A stretch of DNA of 64,000 nucleotides from Blasia pusilla (taxonomy: Eukaryota), in the NCBI GenBank assembly GCA_050084515.1, contig CM114271.1, positions 34,472,001 to 34,536,000 on the forward strand, given 5' to 3'. The position numbers and the translations under genes are program-made. This document shows, piece by piece, positions 20,701 to 49,400 of the stretch; positions within the stretch are counted from its first letter, which is position 1, and each line of letters opens with the position of its first letter. The notes under the pieces were generated by a model. The model made no database searches, was not told where the DNA came from, and was given only the letters and a program-made list of their open reading frames with translations.

Positions 20701-21496
20701 TTACTAGTTCTTTTGTAAATAGTACTTGCTTAATAACACCATCGCTATAGGCGCTTTATTCATTAGCTGCTCATTTCTAAGGAGCTTCATGAAATTACTA
20801 TTATGGTTGTCTAGCTTGGATATCAACGAGTAAGAGATGGGGACAAAACGATTTTAAGAGGAGAATGGAGAGTCACTCGGAAGGCATTATTTCTATTTAT
20901 ATTCCACCTTCAATTTTTTTTTTCCTTAAAATCCTTCAATTTTTTTCTTATAAATTAATAAGAAAAATCAGAAATGCTTAAGTTTACCATCACATATTAG
21001 CGTAGTGATTACACCACAGACAGAACCACACAACATATATTACAAGCCTGCAAGAATTATTGTTAAGCTCGGATCAACTGTATAGTCAATGTTCGGAAGG
21101 TGATACGGCGCACAGTTACGCACATGGTCCTTCCAAACCATACCATCACGTCCCTCCAATAAGAGAACACCTGATGACAAAACCTCACACACTCTCAAGA
21201 TGGTGCGCCCCGTAGTCACATCCAACGTCGTAGGTGCCGTCTGCTGCAAGTAGATATAGTCTCCCTGATGAAACCTCTGGATAGTAGGTCAATAACCACC
21301 CCGAATAGTCGCATACCTCAATGTATCCCGATGTTGCGCAATCACCAAGTTCTCAAACGCCATGGGCATCACTCTCCAAAAAAAGTCAGCCCTCTGAGGA
21401 CATGCTCGTATCCATACATCATGGTCATCAAGGTTCAACAACTCACCAACATCTCGACAAATGGCCGCACTGCTGAGCCGCATATGAAGGCGCAGG

Positions 21497-21849
21497 TGTA
21501 ATCATCCTTTGTTAGTCATAGTTAAGTTAGAATCTATGACATGAAGCGCATAAGTGAGAAAGAATCAACCAAAAAGAGAAAAGACAAGATATATGAGATA
21601 AAGATGAGAGTGGGGCCATAGGTTGGTGAAAAGGAAGATAAGGATGAGGTTGAGGAAGATGAGGTTGGGACATTAGACTCCAAAGGAGATCCTCTCATGC
21701 TATGAGAGTAGGACACATGACATAAGGATATGTAGAGCTAATTTGTCTTCATTGTACCTATTTCTAAGTATATAAAGGAAGAGGAGAGGCCTTGAGGGCA
21801 TTCTACCTTTGAGCAACTCTAGAATGGTTCCGTGAGCTGGAGAGTTATA
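21497..21849 (+). repeat. Chromovirus 5' LTR
   Basis: Direct repeat of 27187-27538, with a TATA-like tatataaagg. Confidence 0.93.
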
Positions 21850-22479
21850 ATAGTATTATAGTAAGGTTGATCTTCCAACGAGAGTGGATTCCCCCTCTTG
21901 GAAGGATGACCAAGTAATGATACATTGTTTAGAGTAGATAGGTTGTTAGAGGCTGGAAGTGGCTATTGAGTTACAAGTAGAGTAAGGGGGAAAGGTTGTT
22001 TTTCAGATAATGGATGGATAGGAAGCGAGAGTGGCTCATAATTTTCCGTTTCTTAATCCGTTCATCATCAAACTCTTATATGTAGATAGACAATGGTTCA
22101 CGAGATACCTCGTATATCACTTTGGTGAAGTTTTCATGACGCAAGTGATGGAGTCTCGATATCCGGTGATCCTTCCTATTATAACATATGATCGTGTATG
22201 GGATTGCACTATTTATATATATTTTTAGAGGAGATATGGGGAATGGATTTGAATAGGCCTCCACAAGTATTTTTTAACACTCGATGTATAGTCCATGTGG
22301 TTTGTCAACCTAAGATAGCATATAGAGAGTTTATGGTGAGGAAGTTTGATCAAGAGTATTATGATGAAGTCATTGCGTCAACATTGCCTTTTGTAGTCCT
22401 TATTATGCGAAATTGGCAGTGTATATCTTGATCTTATATTAGAGTGATAGTAAAGGGTCAGGGGAAAGTTGGAGCGATC

Positions 22480-27150
<4,671 letters not shown>

Positions 27151-27186
27151 ACAATGGGGACGTTGTGTCTTAAATGGGGGGAGGTT

Positions 27187-27538
27187 TGTAACCATCTTTT
27201 GTTAGTCATAATTTAGTTAGAATCTATAACATGAAGCGTATAAGTGGGAAAGAATCAAGCAAAAAGAGAAAAGACAAGATACATGAGATAAAGATGAGAG
27301 TGAGGCCATAGGTTGGTAAAAATGAAGATAAGGATGAGGTTGAGGAAGAGGAGGTTGGGACATTAGATTCCAAAGGATATCCTCTCATGGTATGAGAATA
27401 GGACACGTGGCATAAGGATGGGTAGAGCTAATTTATCTTCATTGTACCTATCTCTCAGTATATAAAGGAAGAGGAGAGGTCTTGAGGCATTCTACCTTTG
27501 AGCAACTCTAAAGTGGTTCCGTGAGCTGGAGAGTTACA
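27187..27538 (+). repeat. Chromovirus 3' LTR
   Basis: Direct repeat of the 5' LTR; ends ttaca and is followed by the TSD. Confidence 0.93.
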
Positions 27539-30500
27539 GCAGGTCTCTGTAGGACGGCCTCCCCGTATCCTCCCTGAGCTTGTGGTGCTAGAGTCGACAT
27601 ATCTCGGAGTCCACGTTGCTGCGCTGGTGGTGTAGACAATCGTGACTGCTCTCGCCCAGAACCCATGGTGGCTACGCTCTCCTCCTCCATGTTGCGCTCA
27701 ATGTTCTCGGCGGTCCTAAAAACATCTCTCAATGTAGGGGAGATGTTCATAAGAAGCACCCCCTCCCGCACCCGTGTCTGCAGGGTCTAGTCCAACATCG
27801 CGTACCATGACTCGATAGCCTAAGCCTCTATCACCCTCTGAGAGACGTTGATCAACCGACGCAAGTGAGTGGAAGCCTCACGCAAACTCTCACCTAGGCG
27901 TCTCTGGAAGTCATGGATGCTCCGCAACTTCTCCGTCCGTATCCCCTTGGTAGCTCGCCCTCAACTCAACAAAGAACTCAACCACGGGGTTGAACTTGGG
28001 ACAGACCCGACTAGACGGTGCAACTGCTCTGGTACGAATGACCCCTCCTAAAACATCACCAGTGGAAGAGGAAGTAGCGTCTCCTGACTCCTCTTTCTCA
28101 TCTGGGAATGGCTCCGTCCATGACATATAGTGTGGGTTATAGTAGAGTCACCATGCCTCAATCTCCTAGGCATATTCTGTGGGAGAACTCATAGTAATCG
28201 TCCGTGGGCGGCCCCTCTAAATGATGGAACATATCGTTCCATGCTGTAAACGGGTTGAACTCTCTAAAGTTCCTAGCCCGTTGTGAGTCACACCAACTCC
28301 TAAACTCCGCAATGAAGTTGTGTCGCTCTATAATGTCTACAACACCCGAAAACCTATGCGGTCCTCTACCCCGGTCGTCCATCTCATACGCCCAACTGGT
28401 AAGACCACTTAATGTGTACGGTGGATCACTAAAACACTCCTCATCATGCTCCCCCTCGTCTAAAGATGACATAGAAGGAGATCAAGGTGGTCTCTAAGGT
28501 GGAGATCCTCGAAACCTCGCACAACTTCGGGTAAACCCTCTAGAGCTACTCTCAGGTCCACTACCTCACCTCCCAAAATCCCGAAAGGACGCCGTGATGG
28601 CCCTTGTACCCCTCTCACACGATCACTCTCAATCTCGTGAGTAATCCCTCAATGACTCAAACTAAACATGCGGCACTCAATCTACACTCTCTTACTGAGA
28701 TGTGTGTTGTGCGGCAACAAGTAGCGTGGTGCGGCAAATCAACTTATCTATCATCTCATCGACAAACCATCCTCAACTCTGGACATCCATACAGGTCTTT
28801 GTCCCCTAAAACCATACATCATCAATACTCTCAGAATCAACATGAAACCCAATATCCCAAATAACTTCCCAATACTCAAAAAATCCCTCACACGTGCAGG
28901 GTAAGAGACCAAAATGGGTAACCTGACAATAATGTCGATGTCGCTACTCGGCAACTGTAAATCTCGATCCTAACTCGGTCATGAAGACAACTCCTCCAAT
29001 CAACAAGTCATACTCCTCTCGTACTGACGCAGCTCAAACCTCCTCGATTTGCGATGCAGGTCCAGCGGCCCAGTGCGACACTGACGGCATGGAACGGCTA
29101 CAAACGGCACGGCACTCGGGAATGGGGTACGGCACTCGGCGACATACCCTCCTCAATCAGTAATTCACACGCTCCTTAGTGAAGGAGCGGCTCCGCAATC
29201 GAGACGGTGCGGCCACGAGCGGCACGACATGGCAATTGGCGGCGCGTTGCGGCTATGGGCGTCATATCACGGTACTCGATCGTCGTCGAGCGGCTACCAA
29301 TCACAACATAGCAGTATGAAATGAAAACTCAAACACCATAACCCGAGGTCACCTGCCATCACTGGTTGGTGACGAAAGTACGATGACGATGGCGGTCAAA
29401 ATAAAGCACGTGGTGGCGGAGCAAGTCAAAGAATCAACGGTCATCGTGGAAGACCCTCCACTCCATAATGGCGGCAATGGCAACCAAGGGTGGACAACGG
29501 CCGAACGCGGCTCTGAGTGGTGCTAAGCGGCGACGATAGCCAACAATGGATGGTGGTTGTTGGACCATTGACGATGAAGATTGACTGTTGACAGTGGACC
29601 GTTGACGGCGACTATGACGGCGACGTCCGCCGTCGGCGTGGCGGCCGGTCTAGGGTTTGAATAATTTAACCCTAAAAATCGCCTAACAATGGCAATTTTG
29701 CAAGATTTACCATAACTTTTTGCTCGCAACTTCAAATTGCACACCGTGTACAGCTTTACGATCTACGAAAACGTAAAAAAATTTGAATTGTACATTCCAG
29801 TAAAAATTGATGGGGATTGTTGTAACTCCCAATGTCTCTTTCTCCTACACAAAATTTGGCAGGGCTTCCGCGTTGATTTCTCCCAACAAAAATGTAAAAC
29901 CTATGAGAACATAAATCAAAAAGCTACATGGTGCTCTTAAGAGCACTAGCATAGAGCAATCTGCCCCCATACTCAATTCCTATTGAAAATTGGCCAGCGC
30001 TTCCGCGTGCCACTCTCCTGTACAAAAAATCAGCAAAGCAAAACAACAAACTCACAGGGGTCTTGCTCCGATGAGCACTTCCAGGAGCCATGAAGTGAGG
30101 AATACAGTCCCCCAAACTGCACCAAACATTGAGCAACCAGCAAGCTCCCCCATGAAGCTCTCTCACTCACTCATTCTCTCTTTGTAAAATAAGATCCAAT
30201 CTCTCTCAACACCATTGCTCTCAAATGTGTGCTCACATGTGTCTCTCAATGTCAAACCAAAACCACTCTCCTAATGAGAGGCTTGGGTTACACACACAAG
30301 GCAAACAAGACCATAGCTCCGTCGCCTCATGGCAAGAGGTTCAACAACGAGAGAATGAGCTCTTAAGATCTCTCTCCTTGAGGTATACCCCTCCCCTCTC
30401 CCACACTCTCTCCATGGTAACCTATGCTCCCAAGTCACCTCCTTGGCTCTTAACCTGATGTAGGAGGTCAAGGGTCACTTACCAAAAATAGAAACTTGAC

Positions 30501-30696
30501 CATATGTTCAAAATGGTACTTACCTAAAATAGTAAGTTCTTCAATATGGCTCCAAATGAGCCGAAACAAAGGGGAAATCTGCTCTCTAAGGTTTTTGGGG
30601 GCCTCAACAGGTCATCCTTGACCTCCTCAACATGTCCTCCACTACTCGAAAAGGTGCTCTACTAGATCTCACCGATCTATCCTAAAAGATGTGACA

Positions 30697-33600
30697 TGTC
30701 CGTGCGATGTATGGTATGAAATATCAATAAGAAGAAATTTATTCCACTAAATTATTTCTTTATACACCATATTTCGTGTGAAGTATGCTTTTTCATTTGA
30801 AAGTGCGTCACTTCCTATTGTTAAATTAATTGCCTTTTTTATCCTACTCTTGACAATGCTACATATAATTGACCATGAGAAAATACTGATGTAGATAAGT
30901 AAATTCCTATCTTTTTGAAAGTTTGAACTTGAGATTTATTGATAGTCATGGCAAAAGCAGGACGAATAGGAAATTGAAATCTACGTAGATCAAAAAGTAA
31001 ACCCGAGTTTGATGCAATCAATGGGATTCGTGGAATAAAGACTCTATCTCCAATGTTCTTTCCTCTGATAATTTCAGCATCAATGACATTTTGCATGAAT
31101 CCACGGATCACCAATCGAGTTCCATTGGCGTGTCATTTTGAACCATTCAAGCTTCGTAAAAGCATGATAGGTGCACCAATTTTCAAGCTTAAACGATGTG
31201 GTGGTAAACGTGACGGTAAGCGTGTATTTAGGAATTCTATCGGATAGATATAACTCATTCCCTCATCCGGAATGGAATCAAAATTAAGGTAAGTATGTTT
31301 CTGCATAGAACAAACATATCTTAGAAGATGACTTTAGTTTTGACACATAATCTAATTTGAGTAATTGTGAAGAAAATGACATGAAATTTTTTTGAAAACC
31401 AATATTACTTCTCCATAGAATCGAGACATGACTTCTGCATTGATGTCATCAACATCTCAATTTTTTGGTGTAAGAATTAGTGTATCTCTTAAGATTTTGA
31501 TGTCATGAAACTTTTCATAATCATTTCCATAGATGTTGTTAATAAGATTACTTATATTCTTACTCTTGGTCATCATGTCATTTGGCAATAGTATAAAATC
31601 CTCTCCCAAGTGAGATTCTGAAGGCACACGACCCTCTCCAACCTCGAGTGACCAATTTGCAAAAGCTTATTGTTGTACACGAATGTTCACCTCCAAATTT
31701 TGAACTCTCAAATTTATTGTAAGCTTTGTTACCCTCACATGAGACCATAAATATGACCTCTTAAATGTAGCTTGAATAATTTTTGGACGGTCTCCAAGTC
31801 TTCTGATACCACTCCCATGATATCTTGAAAGGATTGATTTATAGCCTCAAATGCATGGCAATGAGTCATTGGTGCCTCATCCCATATGGTAAGCCATAGC
31901 CTTTGAATCAAGCGCACAACTTAGCTATTAACAGGTAAACTATAAAAAAACATACCAAAAGATATTAGTATGTTGGGAAAATTTTATCTTTACAACATTA
32001 AAAGAGTTACAAAGTCATGAAATGGCTTAATACTTACTTGCAAGTGGATTTTACATCTTCATTAATGGGAATCTTGAAACTTGAGTACGAAGTGCGTCCT
32101 CTGTTTAACAACAAAGTTGTTGTTCCCGATGAAGCGATAGCTAAAGCTATCACTCCAACACCTCGTACACTTGCAAGAAGAAGATTGTATAAAAAGGATT
32201 TTCTTGTTCCACCAGACTCGTCAATGAAGAAAAAATTTTAAGTAGAAGAAATATCACGAGCAATAATGCTAAAAGTTTATCGTATATAGCATCCCAAATC
32301 AACCCTTTTCCATTAGTCAAAATTTCCTCTCCTAACCTAGCTTGTTCATGTAGGTCATCTCAATCATACATGAGATCTTTTGCTTCCAAATACGAATATG
32401 AAGATGAAGCTTGGAAATATGCTTCAGGCATATATGGGAAATCGGATAATCGTTTTCCTTGATCTTGCAAATGGTAGTGGATATCCAATAACTTTGTGTT
32501 AATAATTAAAGCGTCTGGAGCAAGATTATGAATCCTTGTTTTTTTGCATGTAGAAAATGATTTGGGAATAAGTCCAAAAGAAAAAGGCAGAAATATGAAT
32601 TATTATCATAGAAATAGGAATAGGAATTACCTTACGTCGTTCATAAAAGATATCCTCTATGAGTGGGATAAAAAACTGACTCAATAGTTGAGCAGGTCGA
32701 GTTGGGGTGTTGTAAGTGAGAATAATAGCAAAGAGTTGATGGAGCGTACAACCTGTGCGGATTTCTGATGCTTCTTAAAAGCATGAGAACACTTTCCTAT
32801 CATCCTCAAGAAGCCCCATTTGAATAGTGGCCTCCTTAAATGTTGGATATAGCACTCCTTGCACAGATCTCAAGTATTCATACATAGTTGCGCCTCGAGC
32901 ATGATGAAGCAGTAACCGTAACCAATATCGTTCTCCTTCACCTATGAAAACTTGAATGTAATCGCTTAATATACCAAACATGAAAGTGATCAAAAGGATG
33001 CTTGAAAATTTACGTAATTTGTAAGTACATTATGGAAATTTCAAACATATTTACCTGGGGGAGTAAGATATAAGCGACCAATGGGATGACCATAACCATT
33101 TCTCCTTTGAATTCTATGATTCCATTTTTTTTAGTCCAATGATGATAGGAAGGAAACTCGATGTATAGATATTTTTGAGCCTCCAAATCTAACTGATTAG
33201 TTGCAAACCATTTTTTAAGAGTTGTCTTCCTATTCCTTTGTAGTATTCCCTCAACATTATCGTGATCATTGAAGAAAATGGTTTGTAACTCGAGTAGATG
33301 AGCTGCCAACCTTACAATACTTAGATATTCTGAACAATCTCCAACATGCTTCAGAGGAAGAAACATATCTATATATATGATACAAAAAAATGTTGAAAAG
33401 AAATTAGTAAAGTGTGATATGTTCTCGAATGTAGACATATTGAAGAATGAAAAAAAATCACAAAAGAGTCACTATCTTGCATGAAGATAATATAATGTTT
33501 CATCGATTTGCCTCCTTGTCATTTCAGTGGTTGCCTCATTTGAAACTTTAAATGATATCGCATCCGATCCATTATATACATATTTGTATAAATATTTCAC

Positions 33601-34960
33601 AATTGAAATGGTATTTGTGATCTCCAAATTGATATGACAATCAAAGAGAGTACATAACAAAGGATTGTAAGGAACAACCCAACTATTGTCCAAACTTTGA
33701 TCGCACTTCATTTCCTTTATTCCATTATCCAACTTGTATCATAAGAATGAAGGAATAAATTAACATAGATACACCTTATAAAAAAATTAGAAGTTAGGGA
33801 AATTTTGAAAATCCAAAAGATGCAAAGCTTATTCATAGACTACATACCTTCGATAAATTGGATATCCATCCTCACTCTCCGTAGTTATGCTTGCAAAAGG
33901 CTTAGGATAAGCTTTGGTACACTTCTTGGTTTCCTTATTCATGTATGGAGCATTTGGATTGAGTTGTCCATATGGGCCATGAACCATGCAATTAGCCACA
34001 ATAGAATGAAGTCTAGGATGAGTGTTTGGATCAAAGATTTCAGAATATATTATATCATCGTAATTAGACGTTGAGCGTGGCTTATCCTTATGATGAAGAA
34101 TAATCAAAATATTTACATATGGTAAACCTCTTTTTTGGAATTCAACCACATGAATTCAACTAGCAACCCTTCCCAATATGTTCTTCTCGAGAATAAGTCT
34201 TAATAACTCTCTTTTAAAAATAAAATAAAAATACTCGCACAATCAAATCTGGTCTATCAGTAGGTTGTTAACCAAGTAATAGTGCTGAAATGATCTCCTC
34301 CCATTTAGGATTGCACGTCATTAGTATAAAGTAATGTGGTTTCCCATGTTGCCTCACAATCAAGGTAATATGTGGATAAAGTTTGTGTCCGTGGACATCT
34401 CCATGTCCGTGGACTTATGTTCTTCCTATGGAAGTACTTGCCGATATGGGCCCCTTCTTTCTCATTCCCCTTACTTGCCTTCATGTTCCATACTCCCACA
34501 TTTCTTTCTCCCTCCACCTCCACTCCCTCCTCCCTCATTGCTCCTCTCATCCTTGTCTTGCCTTCCATTATGGACTAAAAGTGTGGGTCCCACCTCTTGG
34601 AACCCATGTGCGTGGACATATCCAGACTTGTCCGTCTTAAGGAAGGACTTGTCCATTTTTGTGCAATCATGCTCACAATGGCCAATTCATTGTGATAAAG
34701 TTGATGCGTATGGCATGGACCTCCACTGAAAGAAGAAGGCAATACAATGCGCCTCCCAAACCTTGCACCATCTTTGTCACTTTGATATAGGACATCCTTT
34801 AGACCTTGATATAATTCAGCTCGCAACTCTTTTTGATTAAATTGAACCCAAGATAGTTGTTGCATCTCTACTGTAGCATAAAAATCAACCATGTACTCTT
34901 GAGTAAGAGGACCAAATAGAAGCAGACGATTATCGTCTTCGGCACAAGGGGAGATAATTA
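30697..34960 (-). mobile_element. Degenerate Helitron with intron-containing Rep/PIF1 helicase pseudogene
   Basis: Rep region: LRAELYQGL, GRRIVLPSSFSGGP, TCNPKW, VEFQKRGLP, MVHGP, WVVPYNP, KYLYKY. Helicase: Walker A-like FIDESGGTRKSFLY, IWDEAPM, FAMTINKSQ, FSHGQLYVALSRV. GT-AG introns, e.g. about 33054-32944. 3' subterminal hairpin remnant at 30699-30717. Confidence 0.92.
34361..34671. mobile_element. 311-bp non-autonomous hAT-like MITE inserted in the Helitron Rep gene
   Basis: Exact 8-bp TSD CTCACAAT at 34353-34360 and 34672-34679. CA...TG ends with weak TIRs. Excision restores AIVRQHGKP. Confidence 0.75.
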
Positions 34961-37439
34961 AAGTAGACAAAGGTGATTTTATGCTCATTTTAAGAAGAAT
35001 AAAAGAAACTAAACTTGAAAAAAAAAACTTTATTTTATCAAAAGAAATTGATCGAGAATATGAATCTAGAATACCCTTAAGGAGATAGCTGATATAGGCA
35101 AGGGTGCAATATTAAGGTATATAAAGAGTGTGAAGAAATGTGAGACTAATTGACCTAAGACAAAACCTCAAAAAGTAGATACCAAAAAATAAGGAAGAAG
35201 AAATAGAAAACCCAATTGCTATAGAAAGAACTAACTTGCCAAGACGATCATATTAAGACCAAGCCGATACTCTATGAGAAAGTAGCAAAGGAAATTTGAT
35301 ATACCAAAAAAGAGAATGTAAGGAGAAAGTGAAAGCCACCTACCACTGATATGAAGAGATGAGATTGTAAAGTTAGGCCCGAGATGTAACAAAAGATTGA
35401 GAAAAGCAAGAGGATCCCCTTGATTCGATTGTTACTAGTAGTCGTACCATAAAAAGAGCCTAAAGTGTGAAATTGAGTTTAGGGGTATGCGAGCGTATTC
35501 ATGAGAGGATGAGGGCCAACGATCCAAAGAACTTTGGCAAACTCCAACATAAGTAGAGAAAAAGGACCCAAGGTTAAGTTTAAGAAGACCAACAAATTGA
35601 ATATAAGATTGCAATGATTGGAAGAACTACTAGTAAAACACTTAACGGACCTCCATGTTCTCTCGTCCTCCCACCCCTCATTCGAATTTTCTTGTTGCTC
35701 TCTCTTGTAATTTTTTTTCTTTCTATTTTGACCTTTTCTGAAGTACCTGACTACGTAACCCAATAAGAATTCCGGGTTACATTTAGGGTAACCTGGTTCC
35801 GTTTGCTTTCTTGAACTTTTAGTAAAAAATATTAGAATTTAATAGGTTTTCTTCATCAAATCATAGAATTTCAAAAACTTTAAGTATGGTCAAGTTCAGT
35901 TGACTAAGTTTTACATTGCTCCGTGATTCAAGTTTGACTCATCATTGCTAACGAGAAGTTGGAATGCGGCACCGTCCCCCCCACCGGTACACCACAACGG
36001 GATCCACGGGACCCCAGTGTGAGGTACACTTTGGTCTAAGAGAACGACAAAAAGGACTTTCGGTACGTCCTTGAGAGGCCCCATATGGCTCCGCCAGTCG
36101 CGGTCCCGCGGACGGAGTATTTCCGTGTCTCATGATTACGAGAAACTTAGCGTAATCAAACGAAGCTAATAAGTCGGGGGTACGTACATAGAAGAAGCAC
36201 GTCCGGGAAATCTTGCAGAACTGTCCGGCGCTCCGTTGAGGCTTGAAAATATTCCCTGAGTCGGTATTGTGCGTCGTCAGCAGGTCTCCCTCCCACGCTC
36301 CCAGCGAAGGACGCGGGCCCACACATTCTCTCGCGTCCGTGGCGCCCGTACCACACACTTTCCTCTTGGGGCGCTGCCCAGCAACCCAGCGACCGACGGA
36401 CGGCCCTTCGCTGCCTTGCTAAGGGCTGGCCACTGTACGGTGCCCCCCTCTAGTAAAGGCTACTGTCTGGCATTCGTGTGTGCCAGAGAGTGCCCGACGC
36501 CGTGACTTTCGGTCACTCACTTGTTGGAACTTGGAACGTGCTGGGGTTTAGGGATGACTACTTCTTTAAACGGTTCTCGCTATTCTATCGGTTTGACGCC
36601 GATGTTATATCATAACCGTTGGGCTCAGCGCACGGGGGCGCCGAGAACACACGCGCCGCCCAGTAACTGACTGATTCCTTGTGTGAGACAACAAGGAAGG
36701 ACTGGGTACTTAGTCTTATCTTAGCTAGAACGGCCCCTCCGTCAATCAAACACAGGTTTCGGAGAGTTTTTTTTGGGAACGGGTTATCTCACTTATCAAT
36801 TTAATTCTTGGAGAGTACTTTTTGATTTGTAAAACATCTCGATCGGACAACAAGAAAATGGTTTTTACTCTCGGGCAGCGAGAAAAGAATATGTGTTGAC
36901 CATGATTAATCCTACACTTCCATGCGTGGCACGGGCTCCACATTAGTATAATGAAAAAAAATTGGGTCTACAAGAAACCCTCCTCGCGTGTAGACATATG
37001 TATTTTTAAGGATCTGTTATGATCTATTCTCTCGAGACATGAAATGTCATTTAGGAAATGCTCTTTAAAATTAGTAATTAAATTAAGGGGCAACATATTA
37101 GTTTTGATTTATGAATCCGTGTCCAAGTATCATCCAAAAGAGCTTATCTACAAACCATTTTTTTTTATTTTAGTTCAAGTGCAAGGAATAGTTGAGGAGA
37201 AGTTAAATGATAGGGAATTGTGGAGTGGGATAGTTGAAAGATTTAGCAAAGAAATGGGACATGATTTTAGTTTGCATTATGGAGATGGCACAACAAGAGA
37301 ATCCCAAATTCATTTAAGCCTCGTAGTAGGAGTGTAGGTCAACATTAAAAAAAAAATTCAGCCATTCGTAGCAATATTAAAATATTAGGGCATGAAATGG
37401 GGCGGATTATGGATCCACATGATTATGAGGATGGATCAA

Positions 37440-40400
37440 TGGTGTCGTGCGCATACACATCGCTGTCACTGAACACACACACAAACACGCACGATCCCAT
37501 GCTAAGTCATGGCATCCAAACAACGAGACAAAAGTACCAAAATATCTCCAATCGCCCCCCTAGCTGGTGGTTAGGTCCCTCTAACTCCAAATAGCCATCT
37601 ATCCCTACCTACCATGACATACATCTCTCGGACGGTAAGAGCAAGAAGTTCGGGTGCTCATGTGGCCCCATCATTGGTGGCCTTCTTGTCATCCATGTCA
37701 CAGACACAAGTCCGAATGTAGAACTACCTACTCTATATACATCTGGGACACATCCATCGTCCTTGAGGAACCCTAGTGAGAGGTGTTGTCAAGGTCCCTT
37801 GGGTATATTGTATGACCCATGTACTCAATCTGGTCGTAGAAGAACTTGCACTTGCCTGGATGTAGCTTTAGCCCATATAACTGCAATTGTCGAAACATCT
37901 CCTCTAGATGTTGCTCATGATCCTCAACCGTGGCGCTAAAGACTACGATGTCATCAATATAACACCTAGCAAAATCCAGACCTACCAAGATCCTATCCAT
38001 GACCGTGTGAAACTCAGTTGGGCATTCTTTAACCCGGATGGTAAGAACCGCCACTAGTACAAACAATCCTTTCCGTGAGGAACGATGCCCCAAAATGCCG
38101 TCTTCTCAATGTCCTCCAATCTGATAGGCAACTGATGGTATCCGGCTTGCAAATCCAATGAACTAAAGACCTTTGCATGCCCAATCGCATCAAAGATCTC
38201 CTCAAGGGTGGGCATGGCATACCTATTAGACTTTGTCTGCCGATTGATAGGTCGGTAATCTCCACACATCCGCCTATCCGTCCATTTTCCATGCACATCC
38301 TTCTTGGCAGGCATGATAGTGGCAGATGCATACTCTCCATCCGACATCTCCACTAATCCTGCTCCAACCAAGTCCTGGCTCCTACTCTGAATCAGAGCCC
38401 TCTCTATGTCACTGTACCTATAGGGTCGTCGGAAGATCGGCGTGTCACTCGATAACTCAATGCGGATCGCTGGACCCTTCAGCGTACCCAAATCATGCAA
38501 ACTAAATGCAAAACATCTCCTATAACTCCTAAGGAACTGATGTATCCAATGCAAATCTCCTCCTTTCAACTTAGGGCCCATATCTTGCTCCCAAGTCTCC
38601 ATCCTGACTATGGAAGGACTCTCCGGCGTGGATGTCGGTGGTTGCTATGGTGCAACTCCGTCTGGGCCAATAAAACTCTCATCTCCACGTGCAGTATCCA
38701 GAACCACGTTCGTGGCGTACCTGCAAAACATCCCAACGAGTCCAAGGGTGTCTCTCCCGATCACCCTTGGTGTGTCGATCTCCTCGGGTCTAGCCCCCAG
38801 CGACTGCCTCAACCGACTCGGTAGGCATGGGGCTCACCAACACAAATGCTGTGATGTGTCGCATCCTCAAACCACGCTGCTAAGCTATTCCTAAGCTAAA
38901 AAATCCATGTCAAGCAGTTCAGGTCCATCGCCTAACCCAAGACATGATGTTGTGATGCCTCTGATAATGATGGTACTACCGTCACTCTTGTGGGGAATCC
39001 CATCGCTCACTCTCGCTCATCGGCGTTGGGCTCCACCAACCTCTGTACTTGGTCATCCCAAAAAAAGCTAGGTCCGGCCTCCTTGAATGCATAGGAAGCG
39101 AGAAAACTCACCAATGTGGGAAAGGCTGCCTGTGGCCTGCCAATCCTGTTGACCACAATCAACGGCGGTGGATCATCGTGCCTCACTGCCTATGATCGCA
39201 AGCCTAGATCCAATATAGAATCCACCAACAAATCGCAGGAACGCTCCACTCTCGGGTAAGCCCTCCGCAACACCTCATGTGGTACCAAGTTGGTCCACCA
39301 AAGACGCGGGCGGTAGAACCTACACCCACCTCATCTAACAACACTGCCGGGCCAATCCGTGCGCGCACCTGATGTGCACTCGTCACCACGCGGGACCTTG
39401 AATCTCCCAAAATCGGCATATTCTCCAAAATATATGTTGGAGAACGAGGCCAATGCTCTTGTAAATCTCCCAAAACAATATGGACCAAGTGTCATCTAAC
39501 CCACTACCTTGTCCAATACTCGATTGGCCTTGACACAACCAACCACCAATGACCAAGTCTATGGTCCCTGCCCGTTCCAAGTCCTACGCCCCCAACAATG
39601 AAATGCCCCTTGGTAGAAAACTCTGGTTACCAGTGCAAACGTCGCGCTCCACGCGGTCTGCACATGCTCAGTGGCTGAGCGTCGAAGCTCCTCAGTCGAG
39701 CCCCAAAGCGGCATCTCTTCTCCACACACGGATGGGGCTACCATGACACTCCTCTACATGGCAATGTCAGGAACGGAAGTATCCATTGCATGGACATGTC
39801 CGTGAATCAAATCACTAGGCCAAGTGATGGCACTACTAAATACTGCTAAGGTCGCCATCTCTCTTGGCCGTCGCTCGATCACTGCACCTGTGAATCAAAC
39901 AGGTAATGAGCTAAGGTGTCCATCACCTGACTGCCATTCTAGTCTATAGGATGCTGACTCCTCCTAGTAATCCAGGGAAAACCCCATCGGGTATAACACT
40001 TCTCCACCAACCAAGACGTCGTAAGACTCTATATCAGTCACTATCGCCTTGGCTTGCACCACGGACTCATCTGTAGGATGTCCCAGGTGAATCCTCACCA
40101 TAAGCTCTTGTCAGGTGATATATTCTGTGGTACTCGCTCCATCCAAGGATGTCTGTATCCGGAATGGACAACACTCCACATCGACTCTCGTCAAGCCCAA
40201 TCCTCTGAATGACGCTTTCCCCAACATCAGGGGTTGCGCTCCTGAATCCAACACGACGCGCTGCGCTGCGGACTAAAAGATCTACCTCTTGGACTCACCA
40301 ACTGGAAGACCTCTCCCCAATTATCCAGCAACACAACACCAAGAGAAGCCATGGCACACTCTATCGCAGGTCTAGTCGGCACCTCCGCCATCCTAGCGGC

Positions 40401-43400
40401 CGCAGCCTACCTTGAATCTAACGTGGACGGCCCGAGCATCATCTCCAAGGGCAGTCCATCACCTCCTCTGCAATCATCTTTGAACGTGATGCAGTAACTC
40501 CAACTCCACGCTCACACAACATAGCGTCCAGCCAGAAAACCTCGGCGGGCGTACCTCCCAACGTCATAACATCGGAAGCAAAAAATAAAGGAGCGCGGTA
40601 CACAAGGGTGGCCGCCCCCAACAACGTGCTCGACACATGCCCCTCCTGAGCATCAACAATAGGAGTTGTTGCACTCGCTTCTCCCATCGCCCTCTGTGCC
40701 TGCACATCAACAATATCACCAACTCTCCAGGAACTCTGATCAGGACCCATCGATGGGGTCCTCATCGCCTCGGACAACGTGAAAGACTGAGGAAGCCTTG
40801 TCTATTTCCTGGCTTCCCCTCGATGTGGATCCAACTCTACGGCTGCTCCACGCATCTCAATTGCGGCGGCCTCCATTTGGGCAACCCCGCATATCCAACC
40901 AGGATCCTCTACATCTCTGGCTGCTCCATATGATGTGGATGCCACGGATCGGACATCGGGTAATCTCAATGCCATAGCGGCAATATGCTCCTGTAGCTGT
41001 TGTATCTAAGCAACCATCCTAGCCTCATGTCCGGCGTCTCCCTTGATGCGTCTAGGTGGTAGGACTCTACCTCCTCCACGGGCAGCTCCACCATCATGTC
41101 GGTCAACTCTTGCTCCTCGTCCCCCAACATGACCACTTGGTGCACGATCTCTACGCCCACCGGACTGACTACTCGCTCTGCTGCCCTCTCTTGCCCTCGG
41201 TCTGAATGTAACTCAGGGTATAAAATGAAATACCTGGTGCGTGTATGACAATATGGGTGACAATAGTCACATTGATAACCTCCTCGTGCAGCACCATCTC
41301 CGTCTCCATGCTGAGGCACACGTCCATGAACCTAACGAGTGCAATCACGGTGATGATGGGCTCCACCACATGACCAACAAGTAATCATAGGTGCTGTTGA
41401 GACGCATATGAAGGCGTAGGTCTCTATGGCATGGCCTCTCGGTATCCTCCCTGAGCTCGTGGTGCCATAGTCGACCTATCTCGGAGTCCATGTTACTGCA
41501 CTAGTGGTGCAGATAATTGTGACTGCTCTCGCCCTGAACCTATGGTGGCTACGCTCCCCTCTGCCATGTTGCACTCAATGTTCTTGGCGGACCTAAAAAA
41601 ATCTCTCAATGTAGGGGAGGTGTCCATAAGAAGCACCCCTCCCGCACCTTAGTCCGCAGGGTGCGGTTCAGCATCGCATACTATGACTGGATAGCCTGAG
41701 CCTCTGTCGCCCCTTGAGTGACGTTGATCAACCGGCACAAGCGAGTGTAAGCCTCATGCAAATTGTCACCTGGCGCCTCTGGAAGTTGTGGATGCTCCAC
41801 AACTGCTCTGTCCGTACCCCCTGGTAGCTCACCCTCAACTCAGCGAAGAACTCAACCACGAGGTTGAACCAGGGATGAACCTGACTAGACGGTGCAACTG
41901 CTCCAGAGCGAGTGACCCCTCCTAAAAAATCACTCGTGGAAGAGGAAGTAGCCTCTCTTGACTCCTCCTCATGTGGGAACGGCTCTGTCCATGACACATA
42001 GTCTGGGTCATAGTAGAGTTTCCATGCCTCAATCTCTTGGGCATATCTATGGGAGAACTCATGGTAATCGTCCATGGGCGCCCCCTCTAAATGTTGGAAC
42101 ATACCGTTTCATGTTGTAAACAAGTTGAACTCTCTAGAGTTCCTAGCCCATTGTGAGTCACACCAACTCCTAAACTCTGCAAGAAATCGTGTAGCTCTAG
42201 AGTGCCTACAACACCGTAAAACCTATGCGGTCCTCTACCCCGGTCGCCCAACTGGTAGGACCATTCAATGTGTATCGTGGATCACTAACACACTCCTCTA
42301 CATGCTCCCTATTTTCTGAAGATGACACAGAAGGAGATCGAGGCGGTCTCTCACGTAGAGACCCTCGAAACCTCGCACCACTCCGGGTAAACCCTCTAAA
42401 GCTACTCTCAAGTCCACTACCTCGCCTCTCAAAATCCCGAAAGGACGCCGTGATGGCCCTCTTGCCCCTTGTACCCCTCTCACACAATCACTCCCAATCT
42501 CGCGAGTAATCCCTCAATCACTCAAACTAAATATGCGGCACTCAATCTACACGCTTTCACTAAGACGTGTACTACGCAGCAACAAGCACTATGGTGCGGC
42601 AAATCAACTGATCTATCATCTCATTGACAAACCATCTATGTCCCCACACAGGTCTATGTCCCCTAAACCCATACATCATCAATGCTCTCAACATCAGCAC
42701 AAAATCCAATATCCCAAATAACTTCCCAATACACGGAAATCCCTCACACGTGCACGATAAGAGACCAAAATGGGTAACCTGACAATAATGTCAATGTTGC
42801 TCCTTGGAAACTGCAAATCTCGACCCTAACTTGGTCTTGAAGACAACTCCTCCAATCAGCAAGTCATACTCCTCTCGTATTGACGCTGCTCAAACCTCCT
42901 TGATGTGCGGTGCAAGTCCAGCGGTCTGGTGCGGCACTGGCGGCATGAAACGGCTACAAACGGCACGACACTGGGGAATGGGGTGTGGCACTCGGTGGCA
43001 TACCCTCCTCAACCAGAAATTCATACGCTTTGCTCCCTAGTGAAGGAGCGGCTCCGCGATCGAGATGGTGCGATGCGGCCACAAGCGGTATCGCCCCGCT
43101 ATCGGCAGCATGTTGCGGCTACGGGCGTCATGGCACAGTACCCTATCGTCCTTGAGCGGCTATCAATCACAACATAGCAACATGAAATGAAAAATCAAAC
43201 ACCAAGATCACCTGCCATCACTGGTTGATGAGGAAATTGAGATGGTGGCAGCCAAAACAAAGTACGTGTTGGCGGCGCAAGTAAGAGAATCAACGGTTGT
43301 CATGGAAGACCGTCCACTCCGTAATGGCAGCAATGGCAACCAAGGGTGGAGAACGGCCAAACGCAGCTCTGAGCAGCGCTAGGCGGCGGCGGCGGCCAAC

Positions 43401-44511
43401 GGTGGACGGTGGACCATGGACCGTTGATGGTGATGGTTGACCATTGACGGCGGACCGTTGACTATGATTATGACGGCAACGGCCGCCGCCAGCGCGGCGG
43501 CTGATTTAGGGTTTGAACAATTTAACCCTAAAAATCACCTAGCAATGGCAGGTTTGCAAGATTGACCATAAATTTTTTTTCTCGCAATTCCAAATTACGC
43601 ACCCTTTGTTGCACAACGTGCACAACTTCACGATCTACAATGGCGTCAAAAAATATTTTGAATCAGACATTCCAATAAAAACTAATGGGGATTGTCGTAA
43701 AGCCCAATGTCTCTTTCTCTTGCACAAAATTCGGCAGCGCTTCCGCGCTGATTTCTCCCAACGAAAATGTAAAACCTGTGAGAACACAAATCAAGAAGCT
43801 ACATGGTGCTCCCAAGAGCTCTGGCATGGAGCAATCCGCGCCCATACTCAAATCCTATTGAAAATTGGGCAGCGCTTCCGCATGCCACTCTTCCGTACAA
43901 AAAATCAACAAAAAAATAGCAAACTCGCACGGCTCTTGCTCTGGTGAGCACTCCCATGAGCCATGAAGCGGGGAACACGGTCCTCCAACCTGCACCAAAC
44001 ATCGAGCAACCAACGAGCTCCCCCATGAAGCTCTCTCACTTATTCATTCTCTATTTGTAAAATAAGATCCAATCTCTCTTACAACACATAGTTCTCACAT
44101 GTCTCTCTCAATGTCAAACCAAACCCACTCTCCTAATGAGAGGCTTGGATTACACTCACAAGGCAAGGGACCATAGCTCCGCCGCCTCATGCCAAGAGGT
44201 TCAACAAAGAGAGAATGAGCTCCCAAACTCTCTCCATGGTAACCTATGCTCCCAAGTCACCTCCTTGGCTCTTGACCTGATGTAGGAGGTCAAGGGCCAC
44301 TTACCAAAACTAGAAAGTTGATCATATACTCGAAATTGTACTTACCTAAAATAGTAAGTTCCTCAATATGACTCCAAATGAGCCGAAATGAAGGGGAAAC
44401 TCTCAGGTTTCCGGAGCCACAGCACGTCATCCTTCACCTACTAAGCCTACCCTCCACTACTCACGAAGGCGCTCTACTAGATCTCACTAATCTATACTAA
44501 AAGATGTGACA
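37440..44511 (-). mobile_element. Gypsy family with DNMT/PHD, copy 2: LTR/leader, gag, Zn knuckle, protease, DNMT, RT, deletion, PHD C-half
   Basis: Terminus TGTCACATCTTTTAG at 44511. gag about 42490-41200 with knuckle CDYCHPYCH. PR VVLDSGAQPLMLGK at about 40256-40215. MTase 39620-38900. RT (RMCGDYRPIN, LDLQAGYHQ, CYIDDIVVFS) 38560-37795. PHD C-half 37792-37739. Left boundary approximate. Confidence 0.9.
38900..39620 (-). pseudogene. DNMT3-like C5 cytosine DNA methyltransferase domain within Gypsy pol; disrupted, motifs I-III absent in this copy
   Basis: Manual translation gives motif IV DLVIGGWLCQG (39559-39527), GLDDTWSILFWE, motif VI YILENM (about 39434-39417), motif VIII RPRLWWTN (about 39312-39289), motif IX ERE*AMGFP (about 39018-38992) and motif X LG*AMD (38940-38923), in canonical order. 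Confidence 0.85.
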
Positions 44512-44737
44512 ATGGAGAATGATGGGTGCCTCTTGGAGTTACTACTTCACATATGTCAACAATCTTGTCCATGCCTGATGTTTAATATATATTAATATTG
44601 GAGAGTGCCTCTCCATTTTAAGATCATCTCTCTTTTTGACACATGTCCTTTTTAGCCAATAGAATCGCTCGCTATCTAAACCAATAGGATTACTCAAATT
44701 CAATTGTACACTTAGGATGGATAATTCAAAATTATAC

Positions 44738-44765: not shown

Positions 44766-46406
44766 TTTTTATTGTGGAATAGTTGAATAATTCCTTGGAG
44801 GAGCATGACTTTTAAATATTACATGTAAATAATCATTTGGGACTTGCAAGGATTCATCACAAAATGCTAATTTCTTTTTGGTCAATTTTTCCTATGCGTT
44901 ACTAGTTCTTGTCTTATTTATTTGGCGGTGTACGTGGGCATAAGATGGATAATATACACACAAAGTGGAGGTGCAAATAGATGAATGTGTGTTAAATCAT
45001 TATCTTAACATAGAAAGTTGATAACACATAAGGTACAATTAATGACGGCTAATATGCCATGTTGGAAAAATGGCCATCGAGTGAAATATGAAGTGGTAGA
45101 TTAAAACGAAGACCTTACATTGCCGCGGTCTTGGGTTTAAGACCGCGTAGCCTAGGCCTTAGAGCCAGGCGCCTCGGTAGGGCTTTAGGATCGGCAATAT
45201 CCGGATAACGGTTGGTGGACAGGCCTGTTAAGCGCTCGGCAATCCGACAATGGTATACGTGGACGGGTCTCGCTTTTGGGTCATATCGGATATATTCGGA
45301 GGGAATTCCGTTCAACATCGCTCACTTTTGTTCCATGGGTGTGAATGCGGACATCGGATTGCCGTCCGTACGACGTGGGAGTGCCTACCGTCCGACGCTT
45401 GAGCACCATCCGTCCCCTTTTCCCGTCCCGTTCCATTTTCCGTCCACTTTTCCGTTTGTTCCGTTTTCCGTTCTGTGCTACGTTGTCGCCCTCGTCCCCT
45501 TTTCAAACAAAGCGGTCTAGATCGGATTAGCGCCAACGATTAGCCCTAATCTTTCGTGTTTAGGTCAGGGAAACCGGAATACTCTTGGCTTCGTATCGTG
45601 AACTTGCAAATGTGTCATGGATGATTAGCTCAGATTATCATATAATCTGGACGTGATTAGTGTAGATTAGTGACGATGAAAGATTGGATTAAGACATGAT
45701 TAATCCAAAGCTCCTTTCGTTTCGTAGTGATTTACATCCATAGATGATTGTTATCTCCAATGAGCGCAACGCCATTCAGATTTTGTAGCAGCTCTGTATG
45801 ATTTCGTTGCAGCCCATTTGGATTTCTTAGCAGCTCACGACATTTTCACTAGTATCACGACATTTTCACTAGTATCACATTTTGGTGTGTGAAAGGTATG
45901 CTCCTTTGAAGTTCCTTGCTCGAATTTCAATTATACATTCCAATGTTTCTCTGTGTGTTTAATTGAGCGTAGTAAATCATTTCCAAATGATTAACTTAAA
46001 CCGAATGAAACACTTATGTCTGCCATGCCCTCGTACACATGATATAATCACTTATAATAACCTCTCCCATGCCCCCAAAAGCAGGTATTGGATCGCAAAA
46101 GGAATTGTTTTATGATCCGGCCCAACCCCTAACAATCACGAATCCACCATGATCAGATTCTCCTCTTAGCAAGGTATCATTTTGGATTTCAGAACGGTTG
46201 GTGGTGATAGTAGGAATGATTTCTTTCATTTGAATATGATTGTAAGTAAAGCGGATGTTGAAATTATGCTGAAATTATTCTGATTTTCTTACTTGAACAC
46301 GGACTTCATTGTGTTCGCATTGTGATGTTGCGTCGTGTTATGTAGGAGTTAAATTCGTTAATCCAAGATCTTCCAAGATTTTCATAGTATCATTCCTACC
46401 TGTCTT

Positions 46407-49400
46407 CATGGTGAAATATACTAAATACTCGGGTACATTAGATTGTGATAGGATCCATAACCCCTCGCCTGGTCCATTTTTAAGTGAACACCTAATTTGG
46501 TATGGTCACCGTAAAGAGGCATGGATCCCAGTAGAAAGGGTTGACGACTTTATCCATGGTGAAGAACATAGGGCACATTTCCATACTACCTTCAAAAAAA
46601 GTAAGATTGATAACCCTGGTCACAACTGTGTCACCATTCGATATTGGTGCGCATATGGGCCGCATAATTACAGGAAGTTGGCTTGGACCTCCTTGCCCAA
46701 GGATGTCTTTGACCCTAACACTCGTCCCAAAGGTGGAAAGGGTAGTAGACCGGAAAGCCAGAGCAAATGCCTTGGGCAAGGAATTTCAAGGCCGTGGATG
46801 TCAATTCCACGTTGTGGTAATAATGCCAATAGATCGTCCCGGTTTTTGTATGTGAAGGCACTTGCACACTAAGCATGTAGACAAGGAGGGTCATGTATGC
46901 CATGGTGACTTAGACAAGACGGCGGACATTGCAAATGCAAATTTTGCCCCAAAACTGAGTTCACATTGTAGAGGCTTTGTAGAGCAATTGTTACGAGTAA
47001 ATGTAAGCCCCTTCAATATCATGAAAGAGCATAGGAGGTGGATACGTGTCCACATCCGCGAGAATCCCACTCACAAACATGCGTGGGGCAAGGATGCCAT
47101 GCTAAAGGCCCAAGATATTTTGAATATAAAGTATTCAATGCGAAGACGAGAAGGTGGATATGATGGAACGGATGATGCAACAGCAATTTAACATTGGGTA
47201 CGAGCATATCCAAAGAATGTCATATACTACAAGGAGGCAATCTCCAAGTTGGACCAACCATTTTGCCTTGTGCTTTCAACACCTTGGATGCTCCAGTATC
47301 TCATAGAGCTAGAGAATGGCGGAGCCATATCCATGGATGTCACGCATGGCACCAACACTTATGAGGTCTATTTTAGTACCAGCACCGCCTTCATACTTGC
47401 TGAAATCTGTGTTCATTACACTATGAGCATTCTACTTACTGTGTGTTAACATATTTGGTTATCAAGTGATTAGCACAACTGCAAGTATTGGTTTGGGATA
47501 TGTATCCCTTATCCTTTATTAGAACTACAAGAAGTATCCATTCCTCTCATTGGGAACTTGCGTCTAAGTTTAAGGTTGAATTCAGCATGATCATATTCTG
47601 AACACCAGGTTTTTAATGTTCACAGTATCAATTATTCACTCTTTTGGGATTTGATAAGTTCCAGAACGGCCTGCCATTAGTATGGGAAATCCAACAGCAT
47701 CATCAACATCAAGATCTGGTGGAGACCTTGTCCCAAATCAAGGATTGGGCCAATAGTAATATACAAGTTGATTGTGGCAAGGATCAAGTGCAACTCAATG
47801 GAAGCCCTCTTGCTTCATTGTAGATGATTCGAAAGAGGAGCAATCTACCATCAAAGAAGTATTTCATGGTGTGCCTATAGACCTGTGCCTATGGCATGTT
47901 TGAAAGAATTGGTTGAAGAATTTGCATCAACGAGTGCGTTGCCCAATTACAAAGGCTGACATGAACAGAGACTTAGGTGGTGTTATGTACTCACGTGAAG
48001 AAGGTATGTCATGACAAAGAATGTTTCTATACATTAACATGTTCGTCTTGAGTGTTTATTTACTCTCGGTTTGATTGAGTAATTAAATTTTTTTCCTCTT
48101 GCAGATCCTATTGATGCTTCTTTAAGATTCATGCGCAAGTGGGTCCGATCAGATTGACACTTTCTCAAGTACTACGCAAACTATTGGCATCCCAAAATGT
48201 CACATGGGCAAAGGGATACCGTAGGCATGCGAGGTCCAACCAAGATACCAATGCTGCTATAGAAAGGTGGCACCACACTTTGAAGATGCTCCTGGCGTCT
48301 AGCATGCCCAGGAAGCCAACCATAAAACTTATTTGGCTTGTGCAAATGCTCACCAGTGAGGTAGAAGATTTTTTCTGGTATATGGGCTTCTTGAAACAAG
48401 AAGGCATGGTTAGAAACAAGGCCATACAAAAAGTAATGCTAATTGCAATTAGAAGGGCGAGTGAGATACTTGATGATCATGTCACCTTTGATCTGGTCAA
48501 TGGGAGGAAATCTGCTCGGGTGAAGAGTTTATCGAACCCTGATCTTTGGCATGATGTGGTGGAGTATGACACCAAGGATGCAGCTTGTACATGTGCACAT
48601 GCCAATGAAAGATTCACTTGTAAGCAACAGGTTTGTCTGCTTGCAACTCCAAAAAACCCATGACATACTCTTTACTATGGTTAAGTGAATGGTACAACAT
48701 ATACATCTGCAGCAAAGTTGCCCAATTAACACTATTTTTCTGAACACAGGTTAAATGTCTTCTTATGTGTGGTCACAAGTGAAGTTAAGGTATTGTCATA
48801 CTTGGGAACACGCTTTGGAAGCAAAGCTAGCGGACTACACAACTTGATGCAAGAGCATGAAGAGCACGAGAATATTACTCAAGGTCAGCATCCAGATAAT
48901 GAAGAAGACTTCACTTTTCCTGATCTTGTTGAATCCACTCCACTGTCCATGTCACATGAAATCACCACCAAAGATGTTCAAGATATGATGGAGGAGTGCA
49001 TACACGCTGACCATGGTGTTCCATTCTCAGATATGCTCCTCCGACACTTGTTTCAATTCCTGTAGAGAGACTTGGGTTCAGTTTTAAACTTGAAGGCCAA
49101 GGTAGAGACCAACAGTCCTTTGCCAGGTAATGGTGGTGAAATTGTTGCACATTATCCAGAGCCATTTTTCCGATATAATGGTATTGATTTCCGCCTCCGG
49201 AGACGCATGGATTGGTACGAGCCCATGCATGATAAATGTAGGAATGCTGAGCAAGGCAAAAATCAGCCATCTGGTGAAGACCACCAGGTTGAGTCTTCCC
49301 AAAGAGTGAAGAAGGCCAAGTTTTGAATATAGAGGCAAAAATTGAAACAGAGGCATGTTCTCATTTAGACTTGGATGCTTTGGTGAGCCAAGTTCAAGAT

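Follow-up and report, generated by a model that had tools for sequence, protein, structure and literature searches.

In a 64,000-nt stretch of Blasia pusilla DNA (the window, to whose positions all coordinates refer), the segment 38902–39646, read on the minus strand, is very probably the decayed remainder of the methyltransferase domain in a long terminal repeat (LTR) retrotransposon copy that is dead and 3'-truncated, called copy 1 below. In our best explanation, the family of copy 1 has the order gag (with a CCHC zinc knuckle), aspartic protease (PR), DNMT3-type cytosine-C5 methyltransferase (C5-MTase; the domain is referred to as DNMT), leaky stop, reverse transcriptase (RT), RNase H (RH), integrase (INT) and PHD finger, and represents, within the bryophyte clade, the Gypsy-DNMT3 kind of streptophyte element already described in Klebsormidium nitens. 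We hold this explanation as a whole with high confidence.

By sequence comparison, 39646–38902 is a genuine, decayed C5-MTase domain of DNMT3 type. The C-terminal part of the domain, read through with stops as X (P0002), was compared by phmmer with 1.84 billion representative proteins and matched 595 of them at E<=1e-3, of which 237 reached E<=1e-10 and 6 reached E<=1e-30, with a top match of E 1.1e-48 at 58% identity; the window domain was 49–63% identical to the fetched proteins, no higher. An earlier interpretation made from the letters alone (the sequence-only reading) had pointed to PF00145 as the profile on which the segment should be judged. One of five stop-to-stop pieces of the DNMT region matched it marginally in a Pfam scan (39383–39583, motif IV, E 6.6e-5), and so did the relatives: five of the seven P0002 matches scanned (one below the cut-off) and all six further relatives. 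When Marchantia P0165 (Mp_8g17980, 1248 aa) was compared with the PDB at E<=0.01, all 25 distinct sequences matched were DNMT3A, 3B or 3C, and the domain, which the sequence-only reading had likened to DNMT3, is assigned to the DNMT3 type for this reason. The best of these matches (E 2.3e-6) spanned motifs I–VIII, and P0165 aligns linearly to the DNMT3A catalytic domain. Motif order in copy 1 is likewise linear (IV, VI, VIII, IX, X) and not permuted as in DRM. The domain thus shares with cellular DNMT3A/3B/3C a linear motif order and similar wording near motifs IV, VI and VIII, but it differs from them by its low likeness (E ~2e-6), by the lack of any detected PWWP or ADD domain, by its location inside a retroelement open reading frame (ORF), and by the presence in many element relatives of ECQ instead of PCQ.

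Copy 1 is a single retroelement copy that begins with TG at 44511 and runs down to about 37788 on the minus strand, on which all its features are read. It starts with an LTR-like 5' terminus (44170–44511, inner end approximate), and the similarity of all three family copies of the window stops at 44511. Residues 8–1215 of P0165 are colinear by tblastn with 42239–38721, through gag, PR and DNMT. The gag remnant (40448–42239, P0165 residues 8–582) contains the CCHC zinc knuckle CWSCGGAHHHRDC at about 41341–41379, as read from the ORF list and translation. The PR remnant (39790–40260, with D-S-G at 40240–40248) matched P0012 residues 1023–1188 (E 9.8e-19) and P0165 residues 637–811 by tblastn; the window pieces of PR gave no Pfam match themselves, whereas three relatives (P0132, P0162 and P0178) have a PF13650 match where PR is expected, upstream of their DNMT. 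A deletion junction with a change of frame follows (39640–39652): the P0165 alignments stop at residue 811 and restart at residue 907, both at 39646, and residues 812–906 (about 95 residues, including motif I FGG..G) have no counterpart in copy 1. The peptide 39559–39753 was considered as a candidate for motifs II–III and rejected, as the Marchantia alignment assigns it to the PR-DNMT linker, with the motif I region deleted.

The DNMT remnant itself (38902–39646; PF00145, phmmer and tblastn) is spread over three frames, which by tblastn with P0165 carry motif IV (39646–39431), motif VI (39476–39309) and motifs VIII–X (39354–38902). Motif IV reads GGWLCQG: the catalytic Cys is retained (codon 39533–39535) and the preceding Pro is replaced by Leu (codon 39536–39538). 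Motif VI reads ENM (39417–39425), with Met for the Val of ENV, and motifs VIII–X read RPRLWWTN, EPNADERE*AMGF and LG*AMD, the C-terminal part of the domain being interrupted by four in-frame stops (two of them shown here by asterisks). The linker between DNMT and RT (38648–38901; P0165 residues 1165–1213 on 38897–38727) is frameshifted, and with additional frameshifts at about 38898 and before RT, the total in copy 1 is at least four. An in-frame TAG (38645–38647), with CAA CCA as the next six bases, directly precedes the RT ORF and lies in its frame (the ORF 38645–38833 is in the RT frame); it occupies the site of the conserved stop between ORF1 and ORF2 of the family. The RT remnant (37790–38644) is in two frames; it matched RVT_1 on 37773–38105 (E 9.7e-15) and on 38054–38644 (E 4.7e-4), and P0178 residues 1306–1597 by tblastn. 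It is broken off at 37786–37790, with loose ends at 37785 and 37790 in reads of two different repeats. In conclusion, copy 1 is dead and 3'-truncated: motif I is lost, the frame is broken, and RNase H and integrase are absent.

The methyltransferase-like peptides quoted in the sequence-only reading were all found on the minus strand where it had placed them. Its placement of a methyltransferase between the protease and RT of a Gypsy-order element agrees with the tblastn order PR, DNMT, RT, and its description of the copy as dead is confirmed by the Leu for Pro in motif IV, the stops and, in the P0165 alignment, the deletion of motif I. Frameshifts and a deletion junction with loss of motif I were also correctly recognized; the number of frameshifts, given as two, and the position of the junction, given as near 39620, have to be corrected to at least four and to about 39646, respectively.

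The order found in copy 1 recurs in relatives from other species. Pol has the Ty3/Gypsy order, as PR-DNMT-RT in copy 1, as RT, RH, INT in copy 3 of the window, and in its entirety in P0178 (2358 aa), in which PR, DNMT, RT, RNase H, integrase and PHD are encoded in a single ORF. P0184 has CCHC, PR, DNMT and RT, and the K. nitens protein KFL_013780020 (P0132) has CCHC, PR and DNMT. A domain scan of 196 fetched proteins placed DNMT after PR or before RT in 39 and between RNase H and integrase in 65; DNMT was the sole domain matched in 91, and one protein had integrase and PHD only. Named relatives were found in the liverworts Calypogeia fissa, Marchantia polymorpha (including three gag-PR-DNMT proteins of 1159–1248 aa), Marchantia paleacea and Riccia sorocarpa, and also in three Sphagnum species, Spirogloea muscicola, K. 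nitens and Haematococcus lacustris (the last of the RH-DNMT-INT type). Of the 600 pattern matches listed from JGI metagenome contigs, at least 309 encode relatives. Direct repeats of 297–344 bp (90.6–94.5% identical) flank the element in 4 of 15 long metagenome loci, with a start-to-start distance of about 8.6–8.8 kb. Together with the conservation and the read depth described below, these comparisons show that DNMT belongs to the family itself, in which it is conserved, and was not acquired as a passenger by copy 1.

A second architecture, RT-RNase H-DNMT-integrase-PHD, was observed among these proteins (e.g. P0032, P0033, P0193) and includes the chlorophyte protein QJQ45_000957 of H. lacustris. 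Its DNMT is homologous to that of the PR-DNMT family and its integrase-PHD tail is the same, but DNMT lies between RNase H and integrase instead of between PR and RT as in the window. The clustering of 58 of its 59 rows in the DNMT tree (below) suggests that the domain was relocated within pol rather than captured again.

A FastTree phylogeny of retroelement DNMTs (119 rows, midpoint root) was built after leaving out unnamed rows that covered fewer than 230 of the 361 reference positions and rows whose DNMT matches spanned more than 450 residues. An SH-like support of 92 unites the window DNMT with four Marchantia rows, Calypogeia and an unnamed row; this group is nested in a larger one of PR-DNMT type with 26 rows, Spirogloea among them (support 84). 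K. nitens falls in a different PR-DNMT group, and 58 of the 59 RH-DNMT-INT rows cluster together (support 81). For the analysis of conservation, 93 rows were typed as A (PR-DNMT) or B (RH-DNMT-INT). The catalytic Cys was retained throughout (34/34 rows of type A, 58/58 of type B), as was the Glu of ENV (34/34 and 59/59), and the second arginine of motif VIII was seen in 34/34 and 57/59; the Phe of motif I is present in 32 of 33 type A rows. In 13/34 type A and 31/59 type B rows, Glu replaces the Pro that precedes the catalytic Cys (ECQ), a form of motif IV that is uncommon among C5-MTases. In three pairs of intact metagenome DNMT domains dN/dS was 0.09, 0.11 and 0.12, with dS above 1, near saturation, in two of the pairs; no pair comes from within the bryophyte clade proper, in which only one fetched locus (L001) has an uninterrupted domain.

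The stop that separates DNMT from RT in copy 1 is shared by its closest relatives. DNMT and RT are in one frame in 43 of 60 metagenome loci that hold both the end of DNMT and the start of RT. In 14 bryophyte-like loci a stop stands at a common place, 84–86 codons past motif X, in the context ..PKVFA*QP; it is TAG in nine and TAA in five, and is followed by CAA CCC in 12 loci, by CAA CCT in one and by TAA CCC in one. Three loci with an uninterrupted DNMT have TAG CAG TTA or TAG CAA TCA, and in seven loci DNMT and RT are fused without a stop. The predicted proteins of many relatives (e.g. P0012, P0161–P0177) end at the shared stop. In tobamoviruses and other plant viruses, UAG CAR YYA is known as the type I leaky-stop motif (PMC3542737). 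The UAG CAA CCA of the window fits this six-base consensus, as do the three loci with intact DNMT, but the 14 closest loci lack the final A of the consensus and five of them have UAA. The K. nitens paper (PMC5890265) says nothing of such a mechanism in its main text, where the word 'readthrough' does not occur. ORF1 would encode Gag-PR-DNMT, and RT, RNase H and integrase-PHD would be reached by read-through.

The state of the family in the host was assessed by read sampling, from about 1/100 of one host whole-genome shotgun (WGS) run, with a likeness of at least 80% to 37700–44600. The element took up 117,632 of 12,434,590 sampled WGS reads (0.95%), so that the abundance proposed in the sequence-only reading is borne out; three family copies are indeed present in the 64 kb, only copy 1 of which retains the DNMT region. 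Summed WGS depth was 2050–2250 over 38855–39316 (motifs VIII–X), about 2470 over PR and 2000–2400 over most of gag. The one-off capture that absence of the segment from other copies would have meant in the sequence-only reading is not what was found for the C-terminal part of DNMT, the depth of which equals that of its flanks; the N-terminal part was at about half of flanking depth. In the bin 44168–44398 depth rose to about 5030, against about 2300 alongside, which is consistent with an LTR. The family was present at high depth in the WGS, Hi-C and RNA runs of the host.

Most family copies have canonical catalytic codons where copy 1 is mutated. Counting WGS reads with the first mate on the plus strand, 508 of 574 and 511 of 576 (about 88%) departed from copy 1 at the two bases of its Leu codon in motif IV, in the direction of a Pro codon, 393 of 451 differed from the Met of ENM towards Val, and 1076 of 1230 differed from copy 1 at the stop at 39009. 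Three RNA-seq runs agree with this; at the same stop, for instance, 65/67, 63/64 and 86/86 of their reads differed from copy 1. These runs contained 3825, 3914 and 4244 reads of the family (0.03–0.04% of those sampled), covering the whole element. In the DNMT bins, first mates on the plus strand exceeded those on the minus strand by a factor of at least 13, which usually corresponds to minus-strand (sense) RNA. Only 120, 190 and 144 RNA reads in the three runs were at least 95% like copy 1; therefore, the RNA derives from other copies. Copy 1 is dead and the family is probably alive. Where most WGS reads differ from copy 1, copy 1 has A/T and the reads G/C at 427 of the 923 places listed, and the reverse at 224, a bias that would fit decay of copy 1 through deamination of methylated cytosines. 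In the LTR-like region, at 44220–44234 (minus strand), most family WGS and RNA reads have about 23 additional bases and a 15-base repeat, the joint being seen in 808 + 864 WGS reads; since most family reads have these extra bases, copy 1 carries a small deletion there.

Elements of this kind are known from an alga. KnitGypsy-Dnmt3 of K. nitens has a DNMT3-type, non-rearranged methyltransferase in an LTR polyprotein of Gypsy order (de Mendoza et al., 2018; PMC5890265), and the main text reads it as a capture specific to the K. nitens lineage, present in few copies, which have Ka/Ks <0.2. K. nitens P0132 is homologous to the window domain (E 1.1e-14 at 36% identity; tblastn 6e-16), which it carries at the same position; it is presumably one of the KnitGypsy-Dnmt3 elements of that paper, the main text of which gives no gene ids. 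The sequence-only reading had named Klebsormidium but held that such methyltransferases are not a standard part of land-plant Gypsy lineages; as a kind, the element is not new, P0132 having the same order of zinc knuckle, PR and DNMT. DNMT is under purifying selection in both families; in contrast to the few copies of KnitGypsy-Dnmt3, the family described here makes up about 0.95% of sampled reads, and the window DNMT groups with Marchantia and Calypogeia, on another branch than P0132.

Retrotransposon-borne cytosine methyltransferases are also known in dinoflagellates, as SymbioDIRS-Dnmt3 and SymbioLINE-DNMT, the former of which methylates CG in yeast according to the Discussion of PMC5890265. 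They belong to other retroelement classes than the family described here, and the authors regard the captures as independent (PMC5890265). Our literature search found no description of a DNMT-carrying retrotransposon in a bryophyte or another land plant, and neither the Marchantia nor the K. nitens gene ids came up in it, with the limit that supplements (PMC5890265, PMC12344493) may list such sequences; later papers mention streptophyte Gypsy-DNMT3 only as previously reported. Land-plant members were nevertheless present, unremarked, in public protein sets of Marchantia, Calypogeia, Riccia and Sphagnum. What is new is the presence of the family in land plants, its abundance and strand-biased RNA in a host, the canonical catalytic codons of most copies, the placement of DNMT in ORF1 with a conserved stop of leaky type, and the second, larger RH-DNMT-INT group.

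Several points weigh against the explanation proposed here. The PF00145 match on the window is marginal (22.9 bits for a cut-off of 22) and fell to 15.6 bits, E 0.011, when the whole frame was scanned; the remaining four of the five DNMT pieces gave no Pfam match at E<=1, and P0002 matched no Pfam family and no PDB chain at E<=10. The tree lacks an outgroup of cellular DNMT3 or DRM, so that descent of the window and K. nitens DNMTs from one ancestor is no more than likely. The Klebsormidium elements are associated with DIRS-like repeats (Fig. 4c legend of PMC5890265), in contrast to the ordinary direct LTRs of the relatives described here, and no 3' LTR was found within the window for any family copy. 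The strandedness protocol of the RNA libraries is not on record, and most RNA reads are less than 95% like copy 1. Finally, we infer read-through, release by the protease, packaging and methylation activity alike. The other points against this explanation are those that favour two of its rivals, and are weighed with them.

Part of a DNMT3 gene of the host might have been captured by copy 1 alone, or the segment might be an unrelated DNMT3 pseudogene lying between transposon fragments. This would agree with the lack of DNMT in copies 2 and 3 of the window, neither of which retains the domain, and with the fall of WGS depth to 1040–1430 over 39317–39778, the most damaged part of copy 1, which some family copies may lack or have in a different form. 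However, copies 2 and 3 also lack PR and part of RT; because large internal deletions removed PR, DNMT and part of RT, these two copies are uninformative on DNMT. A one-off capture is also at odds with the depth of the DNMT C-terminus, equal to that of PR and gag, with the same order in the Marchantia gag-PR-DNMT ORFs and in metagenome PR-DNMT proteins, with the match to K. nitens P0132 and its order CCHC-PR-DNMT, and with the relatives encoded by at least 309 of the 600 metagenome matches listed, and we consider it extremely improbable. A DNMT captured once, long ago, and now neutral and decaying in the family is very unlikely. Copy 1 and most fetched metagenome copies are full of stops, the DNMT domain being uninterrupted in only 5 of 80 fetched metagenome loci, and the Glu that replaces Pro before the catalytic Cys in many rows of both types would also fit this reading. 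Yet the catalytic Cys, the Glu of ENV and the motif VIII arginines are near-invariant over the 93 typed rows, dN/dS is about 0.1 in all three pairs, most genomic and RNA reads have canonical codons at the mutated positions of copy 1, and the low Ka/Ks of the K. nitens copies given in PMC5890265 points the same way.

The window might also be algal or contaminant DNA that adds nothing to the Klebsormidium report, as no host gene was recognized within it and relatives occur in Spirogloea, Klebsormidium and Haematococcus. The closest named relatives of its DNMT are, however, from liverworts; the integrase of a chromovirus nested in copy 2 finds its highest-identity named matches in the liverwort Riccia (61–64%, against 55% or less for others), and the WGS, Hi-C and RNA runs of one species all contain the family at high depth. 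These data point to a liverwort or a close relative of the liverworts as host and make an algal or contaminant origin very unlikely, and the named proteins of Marchantia, Calypogeia, Riccia and Sphagnum place the family in land plants regardless. Our preferred explanation therefore remains that of a decayed copy of a conserved Gypsy family that carries its own DNMT.

In intact members of this family, ORF1 would give Gag-PR-DNMT in Gag-like amounts, and occasional read-through at UAG/UAA CAA CCN would add RT, RNase H and integrase-PHD. DNMT lies upstream of the conserved leaky stop; it is therefore suggested to be made with Gag and not with Pol, which constrains models of its role. Made with each Gag-PR molecule, DNMT would enter particles and be freed by PR, in the particle or in the cell; after reverse transcription the freed DNMT would adjoin the new cDNA, and the PHD finger of integrase may contribute chromatin targeting. 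The role that we favour, with somewhat less than even confidence, is de novo methylation of the new cDNA or of the fresh insertion, which the sequence-only reading had also raised as a possibility and which the authors of PMC5890265 discuss, among other readings, for the DIRS element of dinoflagellates. Action in trans, on chromatin of the host or of rival transposable elements, appears distinctly less probable, and the rest of our confidence goes to methylation of RNA or to the absence of any present role. Copy 1 itself can play none of these roles.

Cytosine methylation is the main weapon of the host against transposons, and a transposon with a de novo methyltransferase of its own is a striking reversal of this defence. 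The sole streptophyte case found in print is algal, and is read, in the main text of that report, as lineage-specific and of low copy number. The same kind of element is now found in bryophytes, where it accounts here for about 1% of sampled reads and has RNA of apparent sense strand and mostly canonical catalytic codons. The targets of DNMT, its effect on the host methylome and the age of the capture become approachable in tractable land plants such as Marchantia. Tentatively, and as a conjunction that we regard as possible but doubtful, a land plant, probably a liverwort, would house a live and highly abundant lineage that makes a de novo methyltransferase of DNMT3 type in Gag-like amounts, at the end of ORF1, with a leaky stop of the plant-virus kind gating RT, RNase H and integrase-PHD. 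If this is true, the methyltransferase of the element would contribute to the methylome of a land plant, and its capture, older than the Klebsormidium-embryophyte split or passed on horizontally, would not be confined to the K. nitens lineage.

The two other family copies of the window are also incomplete. The 5' part of copy 2 (27541–30696, minus strand: LTR-like end, leader and gag) was recognized by blastn, with 82.7% identity to copy 1 over 3194 bases, and by tblastn with P0165 residues 4–280. Beyond a nested insertion, a remnant of the integrase C-terminus (20989–21447, minus strand) matched P0178 residues 2163–2316 by tblastn (45%, E 5.5e-35) and no Pfam family; copy 2 lacks PR, DNMT, RT, RH and the integrase N-terminus. 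Copy 3 lies on the plus strand. Its 5' terminal region (60771–61468) is 74.9% identical to 43864–44511 and 78.6% identical to copy 2 by blastn, and a second part (62478–63999), with the RT C-terminus, RNase H and integrase, matched P0178 residues 1571–2060 (E 2.9e-109), with Pfam matches to RT_RNaseH, Integrase_H2C2 and rve, and runs past the end of the window. Only about 1 kb separates its 5' region from the end of RT, and gag, PR and DNMT are lacking. Between the two parts, 61932–62399 (plus strand) has weak similarity (70–91%) to 21867–22210, in the leader of the chromovirus nested in copy 2, which hints at recombination or at another nested fragment.

This chromovirus (21497–27486, plus strand) is of Ty3/Gypsy type and looks complete. 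It contains gag, PR, RT, RNase H and integrase, the last followed by a tail that resembles a chromodomain, and no DNMT; the terminal repeats share 92% identity across 300 nt or more. A tblastx hint of a DNMT motif at 23208–23279 was rejected, as the element passes from PR directly to RT. The highest-identity named matches of its integrase are six proteins of Riccia sorocarpa. Its leader contains a long (GA)n/(CT)n microsatellite (22600–22720), read as ERERER and SLSLSL ORFs.

Just past the truncated end of copy 1, Helitron-like fragments occupy 33010–35111 on the minus strand (Helitron_like_N, E 1.2e-14 on 34575–35111). Two plus-strand ORFs, 46297–46872 (191 aa) and 48115–48663 (182 aa, with a Cys/His-rich end), gave no Pfam match at E<=0.01, and both may be transposase remnants. 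A Copia-type remnant is present at 5401–7505 (plus strand), where a gag-like ORF is accompanied by the SH3-like domain of an integrase C-terminus (PF25597, E 2.9e-28).

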